A model generated the notes under the pieces. It saw only the letters and a list, made by a program, of their open reading frames with translations. It did not search any database and had not been told where the DNA came from. The translations under genes were made by a program, and so were the position numbers. From a virus, in IMG/VR virus record IMGVR_UViG_3300048833_000100, positions 1-64,000 of that record: a DNA stretch of 64,000 nt, one strand, 5' to 3'. Shown one piece after another: positions 1 through 63,380 of this stretch; positions within the stretch are counted from its first letter, which is position 1, and the number at the start of each line of letters is the position of its first letter.

Positions 1-8
1 TCACAGCC

Positions 9-359
9 ATGGCTGACTTCGCCCTCACTTCCTCTGAGGAAGAGGACAAAGACGACGCGCCCAAATTCGACTTCTCTCAGGGAGAGACGTTGCTGGTCGC
101 CCTGGATGACGGGAACATCTACCATGTCTCGGTCATCTCGGACACCAATGGCTGGTGCTCTTGTGAGCTCTTCTACGACGGGTGCATCGACTACATGATC
201 GAGGAGGCCTGTTCCTTCGACGATCCCTTCGGGGTCTATGTCATCGAAGGCTGCACTGGAACCTACATCAAGGGGGACGGTTGGATGACCGATGATGATG
301 CCGAGTTCTATCCAGGCACCATCCGTCCAGCCACCCCGGAAGAAAGGGAGATGCTCTGA
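9..359 (+). CDS. Hypothetical acidic protein
   Basis: 116-aa ORF with phage-like codon use; no family recognised. Confidence 0.7.
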   Translation: MADFALTSSEEEDKDDAPKFDFSQGETLLVALDDGNIYHVSVISDTNGWCSCELFYDGCIDYMIEEACSFDDPFGVYVIEGCTGTYIKGDGWMTDDDAEFYPGTIRPATPEEREML

Positions 360-415
360 ACCATGTTGACCATCACACCACACCACACCTTGTAATGGTT
401 AGTTGTGCGGAGTAA

Positions 416-440
416 CCTACCTTCGCTGTCAGCTAGGAGG
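416..440 (+). promoter_or_regulatory. Hairpin sequestering the HNH ribosome-binding site
   Basis: CCTACCT..GCT-gtc-AGC-TAGGAGG can pair over the AGGAGG SD upstream of GTG 446. Confidence 0.5.
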
Positions 441-445
441 AACTT

Positions 446-1042
446 GTGCCATACCTACCTATCCAGGGATATGAGCAAATTTATGAGGTCAGCGACCTCG
501 GGCAAGTAAGATCCCTTGATCGACACACCACGGGTAAGGATGGGTGCATCTACCCATTTCGGGGAGTCACCCTTAAACCTGCTGTCCACAAAGACACTGG
601 CTACCTCATGGTCTCCCTCTGGAAAGGGGGAGTTGGGCGACACCATTATGTCCACCGACTGGTTGCAGAAGCCCACATTCCCAACCCAATGGGATTGCCT
701 GAAGTCAACCACAAGGATGGTATCCGAACCAACGCAACCGTTGGAAATTTGGAGTGGGTCACCGGACAGGAAAACAAGCAACATGCGGTAGACAGCGGAC
801 TGCGTGTTTATACCCACCGACTTACCAGAGACGAGTTTGTGGAGTGCATCCACGACATTATTGGTGGGGAGTCATATCAGTCACTGTCCGAACGTGTCCC
901 CTATAAGGTCCCGTTCCTTTCAACCAAGCTCCGGCAGTTGGCCAAAGAACTTGGCTTGGAGCAGGACCTGGATAACTCCCTTCGAGAACAGCGCATCACA
1001 AGAGCGAGGATCAACGGTGCTAAACATAGCAGAGCTGATTGA
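446..1042 (+). CDS. NUMOD4-HNH homing endonuclease
   Basis: N-terminal 'IQGYEQIYEVSDLGQVRS' (NUMOD4) and 'VHRLVAEAHIPNP..PEVNHKDG.RTN....NLEWVT..EN..HA' (HNH); lower GC than flanks. Confidence 0.92.
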   Translation: MPYLPIQGYEQIYEVSDLGQVRSLDRHTTGKDGCIYPFRGVTLKPAVHKDTGYLMVSLWKGGVGRHHYVHRLVAEAHIPNPMGLPEVNHKDGIRTNATVGNLEWVTGQENKQHAVDSGLRVYTHRLTRDEFVECIHDIIGGESYQSLSERVPYKVPFLSTKLRQLAKELGLEQDLDNSLREQRITRARINGAKHSRAD

Positions 1043-1820
1043 CTCGGTGCAGGAGGTGTCCCCCTCCGCCCATAACGTCAATCGCATCAACTCCATTGCT
1101 GACCACTATAAGAAGGAACGCCAAGAGAGCAAGACTCCCACCTTTGCTCTCACGCTCTGACCCCCTCTTCTTCGGAGGAGGGGGTAGAGCAAAGATACCT
1201 ATCAGGGGACCTGGAAGACCATCGTCGGCCAGGGTTTTGCCGTGAAGGTCGCCAAGCAGATCGAGAAGCGATACCACGAGCTCTATGTGGTCTCGGACCA
1301 ATGGGTCGCAGCCAAGCTCGATCAGGCCTCGATCGACGGCTATGTCACCGCAGCCTTCGGTCTTCGGGTCAGAACCCCTCTGCTTGCCCAGGTCATCCGG
1401 GGCAACTCCAAGACCCCCTATGAGGCCGAGGCAGAAGGCCGCACCGCAGGCAATGCTCTCGGGCAGTCCTGGTGCCTGTTGAACAGCCGGGCATGGGTCG
1501 AGTTCATGCAGAAGGTTCGGGCCAACCCGGACATGCGCCTCAAGGTCCGGCCCTGTGCCCAGATCCATGACGCAGGCTATGCCCTGATCCCCGATGACAT
1601 CGAGGTGCTCCAATACGTCAACGAGCACCTGGTCGAAGCCGTCTACTGGCAGGACCATCCTGACATCTCCCATCCCGATGTGAAACTCGGCGGGGAACTC
1701 TCCATCTTCTGGCCGAGCTGGGAGCATGAAGCTGTGATCCCGAACAGTGCCTCGGTGGATGCGATCTACGCAGTCATCGAGAACCATACGAAAAAACTCC
1801 GGGACAAGGGGGTCATCTGA
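1017..1820 (+). CDS. DNA polymerase (family A, N4-like), C-terminal subunit of a split gene, interrupted by a 45-nt insert (1155-1199)
   Basis: SD GAGGA (1006-1010) then GTG 1017; 'INSIADHYKKERQESKTPTFALT' and, in the same frame after the insert, 'YQGTWKT..AKQIEKRYHELY..FGLRVRTPLL..EAEGRTAGNALGQS..QIHDA' (motifs B and C). Confidence 0.88.
1152..1199 (+). other. Candidate translational bypass (ribosome hopping) element
   Basis: ACG ctc TGA ccccctcttc TTCG gaggaggggg TAG agc aaa gat ACC; hairpin 1154-1190; Thr codons at both ends. Confidence 0.65.
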
Positions 1821-1821
1821 C

Positions 1822-1854
1822 CTCCCTGCCCGCACTCTGTAGGGGTGTTTTTTG
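1822..1854 (+). terminator. Putative intrinsic terminator
   Basis: CCCTGC..GTAGGG stem followed by a T-run after the polymerase stop. Confidence 0.5.
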
Positions 1855-1960
1855 GTGTTTGGTTCACGTCCGGTAATGCAACATTACCGGACACAGTGAG
1901 CCCCTACAGGGTGCGGCGCTTTGGCCCACCATTTCCCCATCAAAGCGCCGGGAGGCCCGC

Positions 1961-2323
1961 ATGAACTTCGTCACTGACCGAAGCCTTGAGATCATTCGCA
2001 AGGCCCTGAACAGGCTCGACCTGCCAGAGAATGGCACCGGCCATATCGCCCCGCACCACATGGGTGCCCTGCGCGATCTGATCGAGCACTTCGATTACTA
2101 TGTCGTGATCGGGGTCGGAGAGACCCAGGAAGTGGCCGGTGTCGTCCTCAAGGAGGACGGGCACTTCTACTTCATGAACGCCCGCAAAGCTGGCGACAAC
2201 AGCTGCTTCATCCGGCTCGATGACTACCTCAGCGACTACGCGGATCTGACCCAGATCCATTGGTTCCTCGAGGATGTCCGGGCCGAATGGATGGAAAAAT
2301 ATGGTCAAGCCAAGAGCGCCTGA
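1961..2323 (+). CDS. Hypothetical protein
   Basis: GGAGG SD, 120-aa ORF. Confidence 0.75.
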   Translation: MNFVTDRSLEIIRKALNRLDLPENGTGHIAPHHMGALRDLIEHFDYYVVIGVGETQEVAGVVLKEDGHFYFMNARKAGDNSCFIRLDDYLSDYADLTQIHWFLEDVRAEWMEKYGQAKSA

Positions 2324-2339
2324 ACCAAGGACCAATCCC

Positions 2340-2570
2340 ATGACCAAGGATCCCTGCAAGGTCGGGGACCGCATCCGGTTGCTCGAGATGCAGGATGATC
2401 CCGATCCCATCCCACCCGGAACCACGGGCACTGTCACCAGTGTCCACCAGTTCCGTGGCCTCGGCCCCCGTCTCGAGGGGGCCTGGCATATATCCGTCAA
2501 CTGGGATGTCAGTCGCTCCCTGGCGCTCTGCTATCCCCCCGACCACTTCGAGGTTCTCCATGGCCCGTAA
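2340..2570 (+). CDS. DUF4314-like small SH3-type protein
   Basis: 'GDRIRLLEMQDDPDPIPPGTTGTV..V..WD..RSLAL..P.D.F' resembles the DUF4314 pattern. Confidence 0.65.
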   Translation: MTKDPCKVGDRIRLLEMQDDPDPIPPGTTGTVTSVHQFRGLGPRLEGAWHISVNWDVSRSLALCYPPDHFEVLHGP

Positions 2571-2757
2571 ACCCTCACCCCCGCTGAAGACCTATGACGC
2601 CGTGGCGACCTTCCCCATCACCAAAGCCGTGCGGGTGAAAGCCCGGAACCGGGAAGAGGCGATCGAGAAGGTCGCACGTGCTGTCCGGCAGAGCTACGGC
2701 GTTGCCTCAGAGAACATCTCCATGTGGGTGCCCTTCCTGGAAGGAGACCAGCAGTAA
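2560..2757 (+). CDS. Hypothetical protein
   Basis: Overlapping start, 'VRVKARNREEAIEKV' phage-like. Confidence 0.6.
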   Translation: MARKPSPPLKTYDAVATFPITKAVRVKARNREEAIEKVARAVRQSYGVASENISMWVPFLEGDQQ

Positions 2758-2782
2758 CGAAACCAGAGAAGGGGTTCACCTA

Positions 2783-3055
2783 ATGGGCTGGATCAAGACC
2801 TACGAAAACTGGCAGGTCATTATTGCCGAGCATTACGGCGAACTCGCCAAGTTCGGTGATGCGCAGACTGTTCGCATCATGCTCCGAGATGCTTCTCGAG
2901 AGGAGGCGTCGCTTGAGGAGCTTCTGATGAAACTCAAGGAGGCTCTGCCGCCCGACGATCCCTGGATTCCAAATACCCAGGAAGAACTGAAACGGGTTGT
3001 TGCCGCTAAGGATGAGCTGCGGAAGTGGCTCGCAGATCGAGGACTTGAGCCATGA
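2783..3055 (+). CDS. Hypothetical protein
   Basis: SD plus ATG; coupled to the next ORF. Confidence 0.6.
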   Translation: MGWIKTYENWQVIIAEHYGELAKFGDAQTVRIMLRDASREEASLEELLMKLKEALPPDDPWIPNTQEELKRVVAAKDELRKWLADRGLEP

Positions 3056-3270
3056 CCGACAAGCCCTGGAACGCTTCCCACATCAACATCGGGGAAGTGG
3101 TGCATCAATACCTCTATGGCTTTGACATCTCCGTGGAGCATCTGGACCGACGCCTCGACCCATTTGGCGCCACAGTCATCAGGGATGGGGTCGTGCTATT
3201 CACCGGCCTCTTCCCGACCCTCTCGGCCGCCCGTCAGTGGTGCGAGCAGAAAGTGCGGGAACGGTCATGA
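3052..3270 (+). CDS. Hypothetical protein
   Basis: ATGA overlap with the upstream gene. Confidence 0.65.
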   Translation: MTDKPWNASHINIGEVVHQYLYGFDISVEHLDRRLDPFGATVIRDGVVLFTGLFPTLSAARQWCEQKVRERS

Positions 3271-3428
3271 CCAGAGCCCAACCCCAATACCTGATTGTCG
3301 CCAATCGCCGCTGCAAGACGCATCGGCCCGGCACCAAGCTGGTCTACACCGGCCCCAGGTCTGGCATCTGCCGTGGGTGGACCAGCCTGGGCCGCGTGAG
3401 CCAATGGATCGAAGGAGGATACACCTGA
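3267..3428 (+). CDS. Hypothetical protein
   Basis: ATGA/TGATG coupling on both sides. Confidence 0.55.
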   Translation: MTRAQPQYLIVANRRCKTHRPGTKLVYTGPRSGICRGWTSLGRVSQWIEGGYT

Positions 3429-3733
3429 TGACCGACCAGACGCCCCAGCCACGGCGGAACTACGCCCTGGTGGCTCTGATCGTGCTTTATACCGATCAGG
3501 CCGGGGTGCAACACCAGCACCCCATGAACCTCATGACGGACATCTCGGTCGGCTACCTCGGCCTGGCTGGCATCTCCATGCTGCAATCTGCAGCCACCAC
3601 CCAGGCACTCGAGCAGCTGCCGGACAAGGAGATCACCGTGACCAACGTGGTGATCACCAGTCTCATCCCCATGGGGAACCTGACGCTGCACGAGCTGCGC
3701 CACAACCCCTTCCAATCGAAGCTCCATTCCTGA
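3428..3733 (+). CDS. Hypothetical protein
   Basis: AGGAGG SD, TGATG overlap. Confidence 0.65.
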   Translation: MTDQTPQPRRNYALVALIVLYTDQAGVQHQHPMNLMTDISVGYLGLAGISMLQSAATTQALEQLPDKEITVTNVVITSLIPMGNLTLHELRHNPFQSKLHS

Positions 3734-3742
3734 GAGGGAACC

Positions 3743-4021
3743 ATGCACTTCTTCTCCAAGATCGAGAACGCCTTCGTGCTTCTCAAGACCGCGGGGGTCT
3801 ACCGTCAGGCTGACCTCTATCGCCGCGGGGAGCATCTCTTCGCCAAGGCCGGTGCGGGCTATATCCGTCTCGGCATCTCGGGGGAAACCTCCGCCCCCAG
3901 GACCCATTGGCTCGAGATCGACCCTGGTCAGGACGCAGGCAATCTGGACACCCGTAACGGGGTCATGCCGGTCTGGCTCCCCACCAAATCCAAGAAACCC
4001 ACCAAGCTCAAGGCAGCTTGA
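3743..4021 (+). CDS. Hypothetical protein
   Basis: GAGG SD, 92-aa ORF. Confidence 0.7.
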
Positions 4022-4038
4022 ACCAAGAAGGAACCTGC

Positions 4039-4278
4039 ATGTCTGCAGATATTGAACCCCGTCTCCGCAAGATCGTCTCGGAGCATCTGGACGTGGATCC
4101 TAACAAGATCCAGGAACATTCCGACTTCATTGGCGACCTCGGCGCCGACAGTCTCGACACGGTCGAGCTGGTCATGGCCTTCGAGGAAGAGTTCGGCATC
4201 GAGATCTCCGATGAGGCTGCCGAGGAAACCCAGACCTTCGGTCAGGCCCTCACTCTCGTGACCAAGCTCGCGGCCTGA
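4039..4278 (+). CDS. acpP: Acyl carrier protein
   Basis: '[27 protein letters not shown]' with the phosphopantetheine Ser motif DSL. Confidence 0.95.
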
Positions 4279-4293
4279 CAAAGGCTGTCACCC

Positions 4294-4319
4294 CCTTGGG
4301 TGCTCCCGAGGTTTTTTTC
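4294..4319 (+). terminator. Intrinsic terminator
   Basis: CCTTGGG-tgct-CCCGAGG followed by T7. Confidence 0.65.
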
Positions 4320-4379
4320 TTGGTTTGTGGTCCGCCGTAGGATACCACATCACACCGCACCACACCTGCAGGAGCACCC

Positions 4380-5366
4380 ATGACTCTCTCCAATGTCACC
4401 AATATCCCCTTGCCGCTGGCCGTCTGGCTGGCCGGGGATGGCTACGATTTCAAGCGTGGCACCCGCAAAGCCATCTCGGCGACCTCCCTTCTGAAGGGTG
4501 TCCGTAAGATCCTCCTCGAGGAGCGTCTGCGGGATGAGGACAAGCTGCAGGTCGATGTCTCCCAGCTCATCGCCTCTCGCCTTGGCCACACGATCCATGA
4601 CGGGATCGAGAAGGCATGGACCCATGATTATGCCGGAGCCATGCGGGCACTGGGACATCCCGAGTCTCTGATCGAACGGATCCGCATCAACCCGGAACCA
4701 TACGAGCTCCGCACCCGCAACGACATCATCCCGGTCTATCTGGAGCAACGCACCGAGAAGGACTTCATGGGCTATGCCATCACCGGCAAGTTCGACATGA
4801 TCCTCGACGGGGTGCTTCACGACTTCAAATCCACCTCCACCTTCGCCGCCGTTCATGGTTCGAAAGACGAGGATTACCGGCTCCAAGGCTCCATCTATCG
4901 CTGGCTCAATCAGGACAAGGTGACCGCCGACCACATGGTCATCAACTTCATCTTCACCGACTGGTCGAAGGCTGAAGCGCGGCGCCGCCCGGATTACCCG
5001 CAGCAGCGGGTCATGCCGCACCCGCTCCCGCTCTACTCGATCGCCGAGATCGAGAACTGGATGCGGGGCAAAATCCGTGCCCTGGAAGCAGCGGCCGATC
5101 TCCCGGAAGACCAGATCCCCCACTGCACCGAGGAGGAGCTGTGGCGATCGGACCCGGTCTTCAAATATTTCGCGGACCCGGCCAAGGCGCTGGATCCGAA
5201 AGCCCGGTCCACCAAGAACAGCCCGACCATGCTGGAGGCCCAGCAATATATGGCTTCCAAGGGTGGCAAGGGCGTCATCGTCGAGGTGCCCGGCAAGGTC
5301 AAAGCCTGTGGCTATTGCCCGGCTTTCCCCATCTGCACACAGAAAGATCTCTACGATCTCGAGTGA
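4380..5366 (+). CDS. N4 gp42-like PD-(D/E)XK (Cas4/AddB-like) exonuclease
   Basis: 'GHTIHDGIE', 'LEQR..ITGKFD..DFKST', four Cys near the C-terminus; N4 synteny. Confidence 0.8.
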   Translation: MTLSNVTNIPLPLAVWLAGDGYDFKRGTRKAISATSLLKGVRKILLEERLRDEDKLQVDVSQLIASRLGHTIHDGIEKAWTHDYAGAMRALGHPESLIERIRINPEPYELRTRNDIIPVYLEQRTEKDFMGYAITGKFDMILDGVLHDFKSTSTFAAVHGSKDEDYRLQGSIYRWLNQDKVTADHMVINFIFTDWSKAEARRRPDYPQQRVMPHPLPLYSIAEIENWMRGKIRALEAAADLPEDQIPHCTEEELWRSDPVFKYFADPAKALDPKARSTKNSPTMLEAQQYMASKGGKGVIVEVPGKVKACGYCPAFPICTQKDLYDLE

Positions 5367-5391
5367 GCCCCGAACCATAGGAGCAGCTACA

Positions 5392-7569
5392 GTGTTCGAT
5401 CTACACAAGGTCCCCCATCACAAGGCCATCGAGGACATCACGCAGCTTGTCTGCGCCGAGGTGGGCAACAAGGATGCGGGGTTCTTCCGTCCGATCGTGG
5501 CCTATCACCTGATGGTTGCGGCCGCCACGATGCGGACCCAACTCAGAACCAATGACCGGGGGGACATCCCGGTCAACGGTTACGTCATCGCCCTCTCGAC
5601 TTCCGGCTCGGGTAAAGGTCACGGCATGGGTGTTCTGGAGAACGTCATCTTCCGGGACTTCCGTCGCACCTTCATCGACTACACCCTGCCGCAACTGGCC
5701 GAGTCAGCGATCTGGAAGCACGCCATGGGCCGTGCTGCCAAGAACGGCACCGAGGAGCAGTTCGAGTATGACAAGCTCAATGCCGAATACGAGCGGGCTG
5801 GAGAGTATCTCTTCAGCTTCGACGATGCCCACTCGTCCGCGGTGAAGCAGTTGCGGGAGAAGCTCCTAATTTCCCAGGCCGGCTCGCTCAACTTCATCGT
5901 GGACGAGATCGGGTCGAACCTCGACAAGATCGCCCCCACGATGCCGGTCTTCCTGGAGCTCTATGACCAGGGTCTCGCCAAGCAGAAGCTCTACATGAAC
6001 TCGGCTGACCGCAAGCGGACAGCCCAGATCGAGGGCAAGACCCCCACGAACATGATCCTCTTCGGCACCCCCTCGAAACTCTTCAACGGGGGCAACACCG
6101 AGGACACGTTCTATGAGCTTCTGGAGACGGGCTTTGCCCGGCGCTGCATCTTCTCCCTGGGGCATCCGAACCCGGCCTATCATGACATGACGGCCGAGGA
6201 GCAATACGACGCTCAATCGGACCCGACCAAGAAGGCCGAGCTGCAAGCCTGGGCGGATCACCTCGCCTCTCTCGCCGATACCGCCAAATACGATCAGATG
6301 ATCGAGGTCCCCCGTGACGTGGGGATCAAGCTCATCGAGTATCGCAACTGGTGCGACGAGCGGGCATCCGAGATGCCCGAGCACAACGACATCCGCAAGG
6401 CCGAAATGGCGCACCGCTACTTCAAGACCCTGAAGCTGGCGGGCGCCCTGGCCTTCGTGGAGGAGTCCCCTGCCCTGACAGAGGGTCTTCTCCTCTCGGC
6501 CATCAAGCTGGTCGAGGAGTCCGGGGAGAGCTTCCAGGCGATCCTGTCACGGGAACGGCCCTATATGAAGCTGGCTCGCTACATCGCAGCCATGGGCACT
6601 GAGCTGACCCATGCTGACCTTGCAGAGGAGCTGCCCTTCTACAAGACCGGCGCAGGTCCCAGGAGCGAGCTCCTGACTATGGCAACGGCCTGGGGCTACA
6701 AACACCACATCATCCTGAAGCGGCGCTACATGGATGACGTGGAGTTCTTCTCGGGGGAAGCCCTGAAGAAGACCCAGCTCTCTGAGCTGCACCTGGCCCA
6801 CTCGGAAGACTGGACCCAGGGGTATTCGGCGGAGCTTGCTCCATTCGATCAGCTCGATCGACTGGTGGCTTTGCCGGATTACAACTGGACTGTCCATGCT
6901 TTCAAGGATGGGCACCGGGCCGGTGACAACGTAATCCCAGGCTTCAACCTGGCCGTCTTCGACATCGACGGCACGGTCAGCAGGGATGTGGTTCACGAGC
7001 TCCTGGAGGATTACACCTTCATGACCTACACCACCAAGCGCCACACACCGGCCGCCAACCGCTTCCGCCTGATCCTGCCGATGAACTATCATCTGAAGCT
7101 CGATCGGGAGGAATACCGGGAGTTCATGGACAACATGCTCGAATGGCTGCCCTTCGAGGTCGATGTCGACGCAGCCCGCGACATCGCCCGGAAGTGGGCC
7201 ACCAACGAGCATGCCCTCATCCACACGAACCAGGGCGAAAAGCTCCTGGATGTGCTCCCCTTCGTGCCCCGGACCAAGCGGAACGAGCAGCGTCAGGCCG
7301 ACCTGAAGCAACAGACCAAGGAGCTGGGATCCCTCGACAGCCTGGAGCGGTGGTTCGCACATCGCTTCATGGATGGGGATCGCAACAACGCCATGCTGAA
7401 GTTCACCCTCGCTCTGGTGGACTCCGGCATGGATTACATCGAGGTCGAGAACAAGGTCTTCGCCTTCAACGCCAAGCTCAAGAACAAGCTCGACAAGGAC
7501 GAGCTTCGTCGCACGGTGCTGGTGACCGCCAACAAGCGCATCCAGGACCGTCGGGCAGCCGGCATCTGA
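5392..7569 (+). CDS. N4 gp43-like DNA primase
   Basis: AGGAG SD + GTG; 'SGSGKG', 'DEIGSNL', 'YTTKRH..RFRLILP', C-terminal 'DRNNAML'; N4 synteny. Confidence 0.85.
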   Translation: MFDLHKVPHHKAIEDITQLVCAEVGNKDAGFFRPIVAYHLMVAAATMRTQLRTNDRGDIPVNGYVIALSTSGSGKGHGMGVLENVIFRDFRRTFIDYTLPQLAESAIWKHAMGRAAKNGTEEQFEYDKLNAEYERAGEYLFSFDDAHSSAVKQLREKLLISQAGSLNFIVDEIGSNLDKIAPTMPVFLELYDQGLAKQKLYMNSADRKRTAQIEGKTPTNMILFGTPSKLFNGGNTEDTFYELLETGFARRCIFSLGHPNPAYHDMTAEEQYDAQSDPTKKAELQAWADHLASLADTAKYDQMIEVPRDVGIKLIEYRNWCDERASEMPEHNDIRKAEMAHRYFKTLKLAGALAFVEESPALTEGLLLSAIKLVEESGESFQAILSRERPYMKLARYIAAMGTELTHADLAEELPFYKTGAGPRSELLTMATAWGYKHHIILKRRYMDDVEFFSGEALKKTQLSELHLAHSEDWTQGYSAELAPFDQLDRLVALPDYNWTVHAFKDGHRAGDNVIPGFNLAVFDIDGTVSRDVVHELLEDYTFMTYTTKRHTPAANRFRLILPMNYHLKLDREEYREFMDNMLEWLPFEVDVDAARDIARKWATNEHALIHTNQGEKLLDVLPFVPRTKRNEQRQADLKQQTKELGSLDSLERWFAHRFMDGDRNNAMLKFTLALVDSGMDYIEVENKVFAFNAKLKNKLDKDELRRTVLVTANKRIQDRRAAGI

Positions 7570-7671
7570 CAATCCCCCCGGCCTCCGCCTCACGGCTCTG
7601 GCCGGGGACTCTGAGCCTCCCTGGAGGTGTGTTTTTGGGGTGTGTGCCCCTAAGCGAAAGGAACCATCCGC

Positions 7672-8409
7672 ATGGATGCCACCAATGATCAGCTCGTCCT
7701 CGTCGCGGGCGAGAGCGGCTCCGGCAAATCTGCCAGCCTGCGGAACATCCGCAACCAGGAGAAATGGGTCTATCTGAACTGCGAAGCGGGCAAGCGTCTG
7801 CCCTTCCGCAACAAGTTCATCTCGGTCACGATCACGGATCCCTACGAGATCTTCGACTACTTCCAGCAAGCCATGGAGAACCCGGACAAGATCGACGGGA
7901 TCATTATCGACACCATCACCTTCCTGATGGAGATGTTTGAGTCGATCTATATCAACCGGGCCGCCGATACCCAGAAAGCCTGGGGCGCCTACTTCCAGTT
8001 CTTCAAGGAGCTGATGCAGGAGAAGGTCGCAGCCTTCGGCAAGCCGGTTGTCATCCTGGGCCATACCCTGACCACCTATGACCAGAAATCCTTGTCGAAC
8101 AAGGTCTCGGTCCCGGTCAAAGGTGCCCTGAAGAACAACGGCATCGAGGCCTATTTCTCGACCGTCGTGGCGACCAAGAAGATCGAGCTCTCGGATCTCG
8201 CCAAGTTCGACCAGAACCTGCTGACAATCACCCCGGAGGACGAAGCCCTGGGCTACAAGCACGTCTTCCAGACCCAGCTGACCAAGTCCACCACCGGGGA
8301 ACGCATCCGCTCCCCCATGGGCATGTTCCGTCAGGATCAGACCTTCATGGACAATGATGTCCAGAAGCTGCTCGACCATCTTGACGAATACTACGGCGTC
8401 GCGGCTTAA
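7672..8409 (+). CDS. N4 gp44-like AAA ATPase (Sak4-like)
   Basis: Walker A GESGSGKS, Walker B 'IIIDT', 'RIRSPMGMF'. Confidence 0.85.
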   Translation: MDATNDQLVLVAGESGSGKSASLRNIRNQEKWVYLNCEAGKRLPFRNKFISVTITDPYEIFDYFQQAMENPDKIDGIIIDTITFLMEMFESIYINRAADTQKAWGAYFQFFKELMQEKVAAFGKPVVILGHTLTTYDQKSLSNKVSVPVKGALKNNGIEAYFSTVVATKKIELSDLAKFDQNLLTITPEDEALGYKHVFQTQLTKSTTGERIRSPMGMFRQDQTFMDNDVQKLLDHLDEYYGVAA

Positions 8410-63289: not shown

Positions 63290-63380
63290 GAGGGTGTGGC
63301 GGAATTGGTAGACGCGGCGCTTATAGGGGCTCCAGAACCCGAACGTGCCGGAATTGTGGGTTCGACTCCCACCACCCTCA
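63290..63380 (+). tRNA. tRNA-Leu-like element with aberrant anticodon arm
   Basis: Acceptor stem GAGGGTG/CACCCTC, D-arm GCG-GAATTGGTAGA-CGC, T-arm GTGGG-TTCGACT-CCCAC; canonical anticodon stem does not pair. Confidence 0.65.

Follow-up and report, generated by a model that had tools for sequence, protein, structure and literature searches.

A 45-nucleotide gap in motif B of a split N4-like phage DNA polymerase, beside an HNH endonuclease gene, as a candidate site of programmed translational bypass

The DNA analyzed here, referred to as the window, comprises bases 1–64,000 of the viral record IMGVR_UViG_3300048833_000100 (G000), which is 73,895 nucleotides (nt) long and has a completeness rating of 100%. 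The phage was placed in the N4-like group (Schitoviridae) by the DNA similarity of its polymerase. This family A DNA polymerase is split into an N-terminal and a C-terminal gene, and a gene for an HNH homing endonuclease lies between them. Within the C-terminal gene, the coding sequence is interrupted a second time by 45 nt inside motif B. The features of the locus are as follows.

G000 70940–72985, at the far end of the record: N-terminal polymerase gene, 681 amino acids, ending with a non-polymerase tail of about 48 amino acids.
446–1042, plus strand: free-standing HNH homing-endonuclease gene, 198 amino acids, with NUMOD4 and HNH_3 domains.
1017–1154, plus strand: first coding segment of the C-terminal polymerase gene, codons 1–46, in frame 3 with a GTG start, up to ..RQESKTPTFALT.
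1125–1151, plus strand: 5′ stem-loop in the ESK and FAL codons, GAGAGCAAG paired with CUUUGCUCUC, −11.6 kcal/mol, ending one codon before the take-off codon.
1152–1154, plus strand: proposed take-off codon ACG (Thr46), with which the alignment to intact polymerases ends before the gap.
1154–1190, plus strand: two-tier take-off hairpin, with a lower stem GCUCU/AGAGC and a core with a UUCG loop.
1155–1199, plus strand: 45-nt coding gap, which runs from CUC and UGA through the hairpin and UAG to an A-rich, GAG-containing spacer and finally the landing codon.
1197–1199, plus strand: ACC, the proposed landing codon, which like the take-off codon encodes Thr; decoding would resume at UAU 1200.
1200–1820, plus strand: second coding segment (YQGTWKT..), the rest of the fingers and palm domains, with stop codon TGA 1818–1820.

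The HNH protein matches the Pfam families NUMOD4 (1.2e-10) and HNH_3 (5.6e-9). Its gene ends about 110 nt upstream of the gap, and the GTG start of the C-terminal polymerase gene falls within its 3′ end. The first coding segment begins with a novel N-terminal extension of about 19 amino acids and continues as native polymerase sequence. The second segment shares 65% identity with residues 655–887 of the Meara polymerase and covers positions 233–336 of the Pfam DNA_pol_A profile. The record contains no second copy of the polymerase, a point that had been raised in an earlier interpretation made from the letters of the window alone (the sequence-only reading).

That reading had proposed that translation from GTG 1017 runs to ACG (codon 46), meets two stop codons in the zero frame (TGA 1158–1160 and TAG 1185–1187) and resumes at ACC TAT CAG GGG ACC (T-Y-Q-G-T) in the frame used before the insert. 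All of these elements were recovered, as were the HNH gene next to the gap and a GAG located 7 nt ahead of ACC 1197. In phages Meara and JWDelta, the polymerase has an uninterrupted ..SKAPTFALTYQGT.. at this position. Compared with these two and with 48 other N4-like loci from IMG/VR, the window has exactly 15 extra codons between FALT and YQGT, which is the clean insertion that had been predicted. In the 48 loci, which lack an HNH gene of this kind, motif B is uninterrupted. The motif is matched by R, K, F and Y at +0, +4, +8 and +12 (R-QES-K-TPT-F-ALT/Y-QG), and the gap separates +11 from +12. The homologous Meara segment, RAESKAPTFALTYQG, aligns with RRAAKTINFGVLYGM of Taq polymerase I and places the junction one residue ahead of the invariant Tyr of the O-helix (FGVL/YG in Taq, FALT/YQG in the window).

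Misassembly, another concern of the sequence-only reading, does not account for the insert, which occurs in contigs from two independent studies. One (X2, 1050 nt, from an unrelated study) is 94% identical to the window and covers 590–1636 with zero indels. The other (X3, 199 nt, from a third study) covers 1028–1226 with one difference. X3 also has a gap-less allele that reads ..AAG ACC CCC ACC TTC GCC CTA and then continues as the window does from 1197 (ACC TAT..). Because this allele joins directly at 1197, the 3′ border of the insert is fixed. The 45-nt insert is thus clean and genuine, and is not an assembly artefact.

The insert was also expected to fold into a single strong UUCG hairpin at 1154–1190, and it does. 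Folding of 1152–1202 gave −30.3 kcal/mol (z = −5.6), and none of 200 shuffled sequences was as stable. The core at 1160–1184, (A)CCCCCUCUUC-UUCG-GAGGAGGGGG(U), has 10–11 base pairs (bp), and the lower stem covers the wobble base of ACG and the codon after it. The hairpin motif occurs once in the 64-kilobase (kb) window, which led us to reject the idea that it is a repeated genomic element. An exact search of IMG/VR with the 35-nt hairpin gave no match beyond the window's own record, which was excluded. A degenerate version of the pattern found two loci discussed below (L061 and L064) along with three unrelated false positives (L222–L224).

To find relatives, IMG/VR and metagenomes were queried both by HNH protein and by sequence pattern; none of the gaps turned up in a cultured phage. 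An alignment of HNH proteins was needed as the query, as a search with the single protein gave only distant, partial relatives. About 17 further lineages carry an interruption inside the same four codons of motif B. In most gap lineages, a close HNH homologue (52–65% identity; 34–42% in a few) adjoins the interrupted motif on its upstream side, directly ahead of a first segment of 46–47 amino acids. Segments of this length homologous to 1017–1154 were found in L050, L058, L060, L061, L063, L064 and L140. The gaps are listed here by length, with a slash marking a border of the gap.

46 nt, L140: ACC/CGC UAA, hairpin, ..UGA ACC/UAU.
48 nt, L061: ACC/UGC UAG, hairpin, ..CAU ACU/UAU.
40 nt, L064: ACU/GGA UUA, hairpin, ..UAA ACA/UAU.
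10 nt, L144 and L145: ACU/UGA GUA A ACU/UAU; L146: ACU/UGA GGA A ACU/UAU.
9 nt, L065: CUC/AGG UAA CUU/ACC.
5 nt, L063, L229, L233, L227, L234, L050, L058, L060 and L231: for example ACG UAA CG/UAC, ACU UAA CU/UAU and ACG UAG CG/UAU.
5 nt, L073: one codon-group upstream of the other 5-nt gaps.
1 nt, L062 (4147–4156): UUU C/GCA.
Length not readable, L141: ACU UAA CA, on a contig that ends 2 nt after the stop codon.

The closest relative of the window has a gap of 46 nt, and gaps of 5, 10, 40 and 46 nt change the reading frame. In six cases (the window, L140, L061, L064, L144 and L065), stop codons inside the gap block the target frame. Therefore, neither readthrough nor a single frameshift can join the two parts. 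In all seven lineages with gaps of at least 9 nt, decoding would resume right after a codon that repeats the take-off codon or is synonymous with it; the take-off/landing pairs are ACC/ACC, ACU/ACU (twice), ACC/ACU, ACU/ACA, ACG/ACC and CUC/CUU. Where the window has ACG for take-off, the L140-type relative and the contigs of a further dataset (X9) have ACC. In every lineage with a 5- or 10-nt gap, the codon right after take-off is a stop (UAA, UAG or UGA). Past the gap, the residues Y.GT.. are conserved across every gap lineage. No conserved start codon follows the gap among the relatives, and in L050, the 5-nt lineage that was checked, no start codon precedes Y.GT in its frame.

The four long gaps (the window, L140, L061 and L064) share a core hairpin, CCCCCUC../..GAGGGGG, which starts exactly 6 nt past the take-off codon. 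Its closing pair covaries while the stop codon stays, being A-U in the window and L140, where the stop codon (UGA or UAA) ends in A, and G-C in L061 (UAG). Core positions 8 and 9 covary as well (U.G/U-A, U.G/U.G, U-A/C-G and A-U/U.G), and the lower stems GCUCU/AGAGC, CCCGC/GCGGG and CCUG/CAGG are unrelated in sequence yet paired. The G-U pairs in these stems indicate that the structure acts in the sense RNA. The 5′ stem-loop (9–13 bp) recurs in most gap-bearing lineages through the choice of codons AGC-AAR with UUU-GCU-CU. Its median stability is −12.9 kcal/mol in gap-bearing lineages versus −5.3 in 34 gap-less N4-like loci (Mann-Whitney p = 6e-7), a comparison that is somewhat biased in that the pattern used to find four of the gap loci fixes the 3′ arm. 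The covarying hairpins, the fixed 6-nt spacing and a stem-loop kept by synonymous codons point to selection for efficiency of the crossing.

Two of these lineages merit separate mention. L062, a sister of the 40-nt-gap lineage L064, has a single extra base, at a site where re-pairing from UUU to UUC would give a classic +1 shift; the lineage was seen on one contig, and the base could be a sequencing error. L234 (1337–1364, minus strand) and L227 (197–224, plus strand) belong to one lineage with 77.7- and 74.4-kb contigs and 5-nt gaps (ACU UAA CU and ACU UGA CU). The polymerase of L234 is unsplit and has no adjoining HNH gene, and L227 has too little upstream sequence to tell.

We consider it likely that the gap at 1155–1199 is crossed by programmed translational bypass, with take-off at ACG and landing at ACC. 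Ribosomes carrying peptidyl-tRNA(Thr) would pause at ACG, with the A-site codon held in the lower stem or directly before UGA. The tRNA would then unpair and the ribosome would slide across the hairpin. Forward movement might be promoted by the 5′ stem-loop re-forming behind the ribosome and by the purine-rich element ahead of the landing site. The tRNA would re-pair at ACC 1197 and decoding would go on, yielding a product (..TPTFALT-YQGTWK..) with motif B intact and the junction peptide TPTFALTYQGTWK. As we picture it, the gap also interrupts the DNA target of the neighboring HNH endonuclease, and the HNH gene and gap travel jointly as a selfish cassette that the phage tolerates via recoding. 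Two variants of the recoding event were rejected. In the window, L140 and L061 alike, take-off at CUC 1155 would find no cognate landing codon that brings back the frame. A simple −1 or +2 shift at the 5-nt gaps would add one or two residues to the O-helix and has no slippery sequence.

Several observations weigh against bypassing. The change from ACG to ACC is a wobble-base mismatch for a CGU or UGU anticodon. In the window, the sense codon CUC stands between take-off and the first stop codon, unlike in T4 and at the 5- and 10-nt gaps, and L064 has no early stop codon whatever. The matched codons of the 5-nt gaps could come free from tandem duplication of ACNTA, which makes them a weaker sign of selection. 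Hopping efficiency could be low. The L227/L234 lineage has, in L234, a gap and no adjacent HNH gene, so the link to the endonuclease is not absolute; in this lineage, the shielded allele may have spread or persisted without the nuclease. The gap lineages are related to one another, and their counts are not independent events. Among the RNA-labelled runs, the only one with signal (X9) was flagged as probably DNA; it holds L140-like contigs and is silent on splicing.

Removal of the gap from the RNA, either as a degenerate mini-intron or by excision of the hairpin and religation by host or phage enzymes, was weighed with the presence of a homologous HNH gene inside a true group I intron at nearly the same site in two other phages (nACB1 and L147, described below). 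The hairpin could serve as a processing site, and one proposal for the T4 gap is that it is a degenerate intron (PMC5009743). Searches with Rfam identified no intron and no other RNA family at or near the gap, and the group I intron model RF00028 had no match at an expectation value (E) of 1 or less in the first 3.3 kb of the window or the 4.5 kb upstream. At 45 nt, the gap is far below self-splicing size. Moreover, the hairpin-less 1-, 5-, 9- and 10-nt gaps of the relatives, at the same codon, are too short to be introns and cannot be spliced, and a Thr codon repeated at both borders plays no part in splicing. We therefore regard removal at the RNA level as very improbable. Synthesis of the polymerase as three polypeptides seems to us just as improbable. 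It would involve termination at UGA 1158 to give a 47-amino-acid peptide, restart at GTG 1242 or a non-canonical codon, and non-covalent assembly. The enzyme is already split once, into the 681-amino-acid N-terminal fragment and the product of the C-terminal gene, and the 3′ arm of the hairpin contains a strong Shine-Dalgarno-like GGAGG. However, there is no ATG, GTG or TTG between 1200 and GTG 1242, so the first in-frame start would forfeit YQGTWKTIVGQGFA, including the invariant O-helix Tyr. This loss had been anticipated by the sequence-only reading, and it affects residues conserved in every gap lineage.

Another explanation is that the insert is a tolerated “savior” indel that protects against the nuclease, with rare spontaneous hops giving trace amounts of polymerase, or that the genomes are defective and use helpers. 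The 5-nt gaps do resemble simple tandem duplications, the ACG/ACC pair is imperfect, and short stop-hops are inefficient in E. coli (reviewed in PMC5009743). We nevertheless judge this explanation unlikely, as it does not predict the conserved hairpins, spacing and enriched 5′ stem-loop of the long gaps, nor the persistence of gaps in lineages that have diverged to about 60–70% protein identity and in near-complete genomes of 70–78 kb. Readthrough of both stop codons, or an RNA polymerase that skips the hairpin, would give a polymerase with or without 15 extra residues. The window gap is in frame, and N4-type middle transcription uses single-stranded templates, on which skipping of a DNA hairpin is possible in principle. 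Readthrough would have to pass two different stop codons (UGA and UAG) and insert the 15 residues into the O-helix, and it is excluded for the frame-changing gaps of the relatives, including the closest one, because the frame changes. As for skipping, the G-U pairs of the stem would be C-A mismatches on the template strand, and the 5–10-nt gaps have no hairpin. We consider this pair of mechanisms extremely improbable. For the set of gaps as a whole, readthrough, a single frameshift, restart and splicing each appear to fail, which suggests that translation must cross the gaps. The preference for bypass over a mini-intron or transcriptional skipping, expressed in the sequence-only reading, thus gains support from the HNH-linked gaps, matched codons and covarying hairpins of the relatives.

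Intron-borne homing endonucleases cut intron-less alleles close to the insertion site of their intron. The cultured Acinetobacter phage nACB1 (OQ032511) encodes a homologue of the window HNH protein (50% identity over the full length) within a group I intron about 850 nt long; the match to Rfam RF00028 has E = 1e-7 and is below the gathering score. This intron, which presumably splices, interrupts the Leu codon of FALT at a point 5 nt upstream of where the window has its gap, and L147 is of the same type. These two phages thus resemble the window in having a homologous HNH, the same polymerase family and an insertion point within 5 nt of the gap. They differ in that the whole HNH gene lies within a structured intron, whereas the window has a free-standing HNH gene and only 45 nt in motif B. 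In the GenBank record of nACB1 (L138:3355–4205), two “DNA polymerase” coding sequences flank the HNH gene. The sequence and the Rfam match point to an intron in motif B with the exon junction GCG T/TA ACA TAT, and therefore the start of the downstream coding sequence is probably mis-set.

Because the intron of the homologue occupies motif B, the DNA encoding this motif is probably what this HNH family cuts, and a carrier would then be shielded by any insert at that position. The gap is thus probably a shield of the nuclease target. In keeping with this idea, motif B is intact in split polymerases that seem to have lost the HNH gene and in polymerases next to more distant HNH genes. In detail, seven N4-like contigs (L010, L018, L019, L020, L026, L028 and L049) have the break in the polymerase at the same variable loop, and all seven retain an intact motif B. 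In the two that were checked (L018 and L026), the polymerase halves are 20–130 nt apart with no endonuclease gene between them. These contigs look like the state after loss of the HNH gene. Klebsiella phage Pylas and L168 were considered and not counted as members, as their HNH proteins are more distant (33–37% identity) and motif B is intact. Vibrio phage JA-1, which has an HNH-split polymerase (PMC3670811), was also excluded, as its split is in motif A, its HNH is different and motif B is intact.

In a tree of the C-terminal 200 residues, the gap lineages are interspersed with intact ones, a pattern that a mobile cassette would be expected to give, and the window is sister to the intact L005 (98/89 support). 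We lean toward the broader view that N4-like phages harbor a natural series of ribosome hop sites within four codons of the O-helix, serving as shields against one HNH family. Such a series would extend from a +1 slip (UUU-C) through stop-hops of 5, 9 and 10 nt to hairpin-driven bypasses of 40–48 nt, with the same endonuclease family occupying the site within a group I intron in other phages.

The closest known parallel is the gene 39/mobA/gene 60 element of phage T4, in which ribosomes reportedly bypass 50 nt (Huang 1988; Bonocora 2011). In the T4 record, we identified take-off codon 46 (GGA), followed by UAG, an 8-bp UUCG stem-loop that contains both, and a landing GGA after 50 nt. In both loci, the gene for an HNH homing endonuclease divides an essential replication gene, whose upstream part has gained a C-terminal extension and whose downstream part has gained an N-terminal one; a gap follows codon 46 of the downstream gene, near the presumed target of the nuclease. 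In each, the take-off codon lies within a UUCG stem-loop, a stop codon is at or near the start of the gap, and the matching landing codon comes after a purine-rich element and an A-rich stretch. As described by Manning and Atkins (preprint, 10.1101/2022.08.31.505936), the MobA element lengthens gene 39 at its C-terminal end by about 44 amino acids and gene 60 at its N-terminal end by 44–45 amino acids, with the bypass coming after the latter. Its gap has a stop or “hungry” codon at the start and a Shine-Dalgarno-like element in AU-rich sequence, and the gene 60 insert blocks MobA nicking (10.1101/2022.08.31.505936).

The two systems also differ. The split gene encodes the large subunit of topoisomerase II (genes 39/60) in a T4-like myophage, and a family A polymerase in an N4-like podophage. 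A tblastn search of T4 bases 1–8000 (mobA and gene 60.1) with the window HNH protein gave nothing below E = 1, so the parallel drawn in the sequence-only reading holds for the architecture and not for homology. The T4 codon pair is identical (Gly, GGA..GGA), whereas that of the window is synonymous (Thr, ACG..ACC), and relatives have ACC..ACC, ACU..ACU or ACG..ACG. The T4 stop codon is directly 3′ of take-off, and in the window (ACG CUC UGA) one sense codon intervenes. The hairpin of the window is longer, with its 10–11-bp core plus a lower stem, and the core starts 6 nt after take-off. Unlike in T4, homologous sites in the relatives have gaps ranging from 1 to 48 nt. Of the two, only the T4 system has bench evidence of bypassing.

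Other systems share parts of this arrangement. The mitochondrial “byp” elements of Magnusiomyces capitatus are many short, hairpin-forming inserts in coding sequence that ribosomes bypass between matched codons (mentioned in PMC5009743). They are GC-rich and mobile, occupy many sites and genes and have no endonuclease partner, whereas the window has one HNH-linked site in one gene. According to a 2016 review of recoding (PMC5009743), no natural in-frame stop-hop is known. The 5-, 9- and 10-nt gaps of the relatives have exactly that form (for example ACG UAA CG/UAC, ACU UGA GGA A ACU/UAU and CUC AGG UAA CUU/ACC); they differ in lying in an essential gene of wild phages, and the window represents a long, hairpin-dependent form. 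“Fractured genes,” some of which also carry split inteins, are genes divided in two by a free-standing gene for a homing endonuclease (Dassa et al., 2009, PMC2677866). The polymerase described here resembles them in being encoded by two genes around an endonuclease gene, with extra residues at both new termini. That paper describes no downstream coding gap, and weighed bypassing only as an unlikely way past a whole endonuclease gene (PMC2677866). The window HNH shares NUMOD4 and HNH_3 with the I-HmuI-like HNH homing endonucleases; its probable target is deduced only from the position of the intron of the nACB1 homologue. We found no description of motif-B gaps in N4-like polymerases in the literature searched.

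To our knowledge, T4 gene 60 and the yeast mitochondrial “byp” elements are the only cases in which efficient long-range bypass has been demonstrated experimentally, and we know of no published gene 60 homologues outside the same topoisomerase gene. If true, the bypass proposed here would be a second, independent origin of a cassette of the gene 60 type, in another essential gene and another phage family, and a homing nuclease plus a recoded shield would be a recurrent evolutionary solution. The gaps would then be a source of natural variants for mechanistic tests, ranging in length from 1 to 48 nt, some with hairpins and some lacking them, and differing in whether the codon pair matches exactly or by wobble. 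Such a gradient could reveal how the efficiency of bypass depends on gap length, stop codon, hairpin and codon pairing. The proposed bypass would also account for the “broken” polymerases that gene callers and annotators report in N4-like and metagenomic phages. Finally, three forms of one selfish element would be linked: intron-borne, free-standing with a gap, and lost, with the split remaining and motif B intact.

Some further features of the genome were noted. The N-terminal polymerase gene and the HNH gene are separated by about 2.2 kb (G000 73035–73895 plus window 1–445) containing four or five small open reading frames (ORFs), among them ORFs of 74, 99, 61 and 116 amino acids that belong to no known family. 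The ends of the record fall inside this stretch, and its contiguity is an assumption. In L050, unlike in the window genome, the HNH gene abuts the N-terminal polymerase fragment. The termini at the polymerase fracture carry conserved extensions, at G000 72836–72985 (L003:3397–3546) and window 1017–1076. The tail of the N-terminal fragment begins with Cys (CFEAKIGDRTIWF..) and has homologues in L050 and Pylas. The head of the C-terminal fragment has a conserved HN. These features look intein-like, but HN is followed by Val, Leu or Arg. A split intein was rejected, as the 68-amino-acid tail and 46-amino-acid head have no Pfam Hint/intein match and the residue after HN is not a C/S/T nucleophile.

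In this genome, which seemingly depends on recoding, we identified an odd tRNA gene at window 63290–63380 (plus strand). It appears genuine (Rfam tRNA, 41.7 bits) and is of class II, with a Leu-like D arm and a long variable region. Its anticodon loop was not assignable by ARAGORN, which reads a 4-base anticodon, AUAG. Within the replication module, the ORF at 4018–4278 (plus strand) encodes 86 amino acids with an acyl-carrier-protein-like sequence (..DSLDTVELV..).

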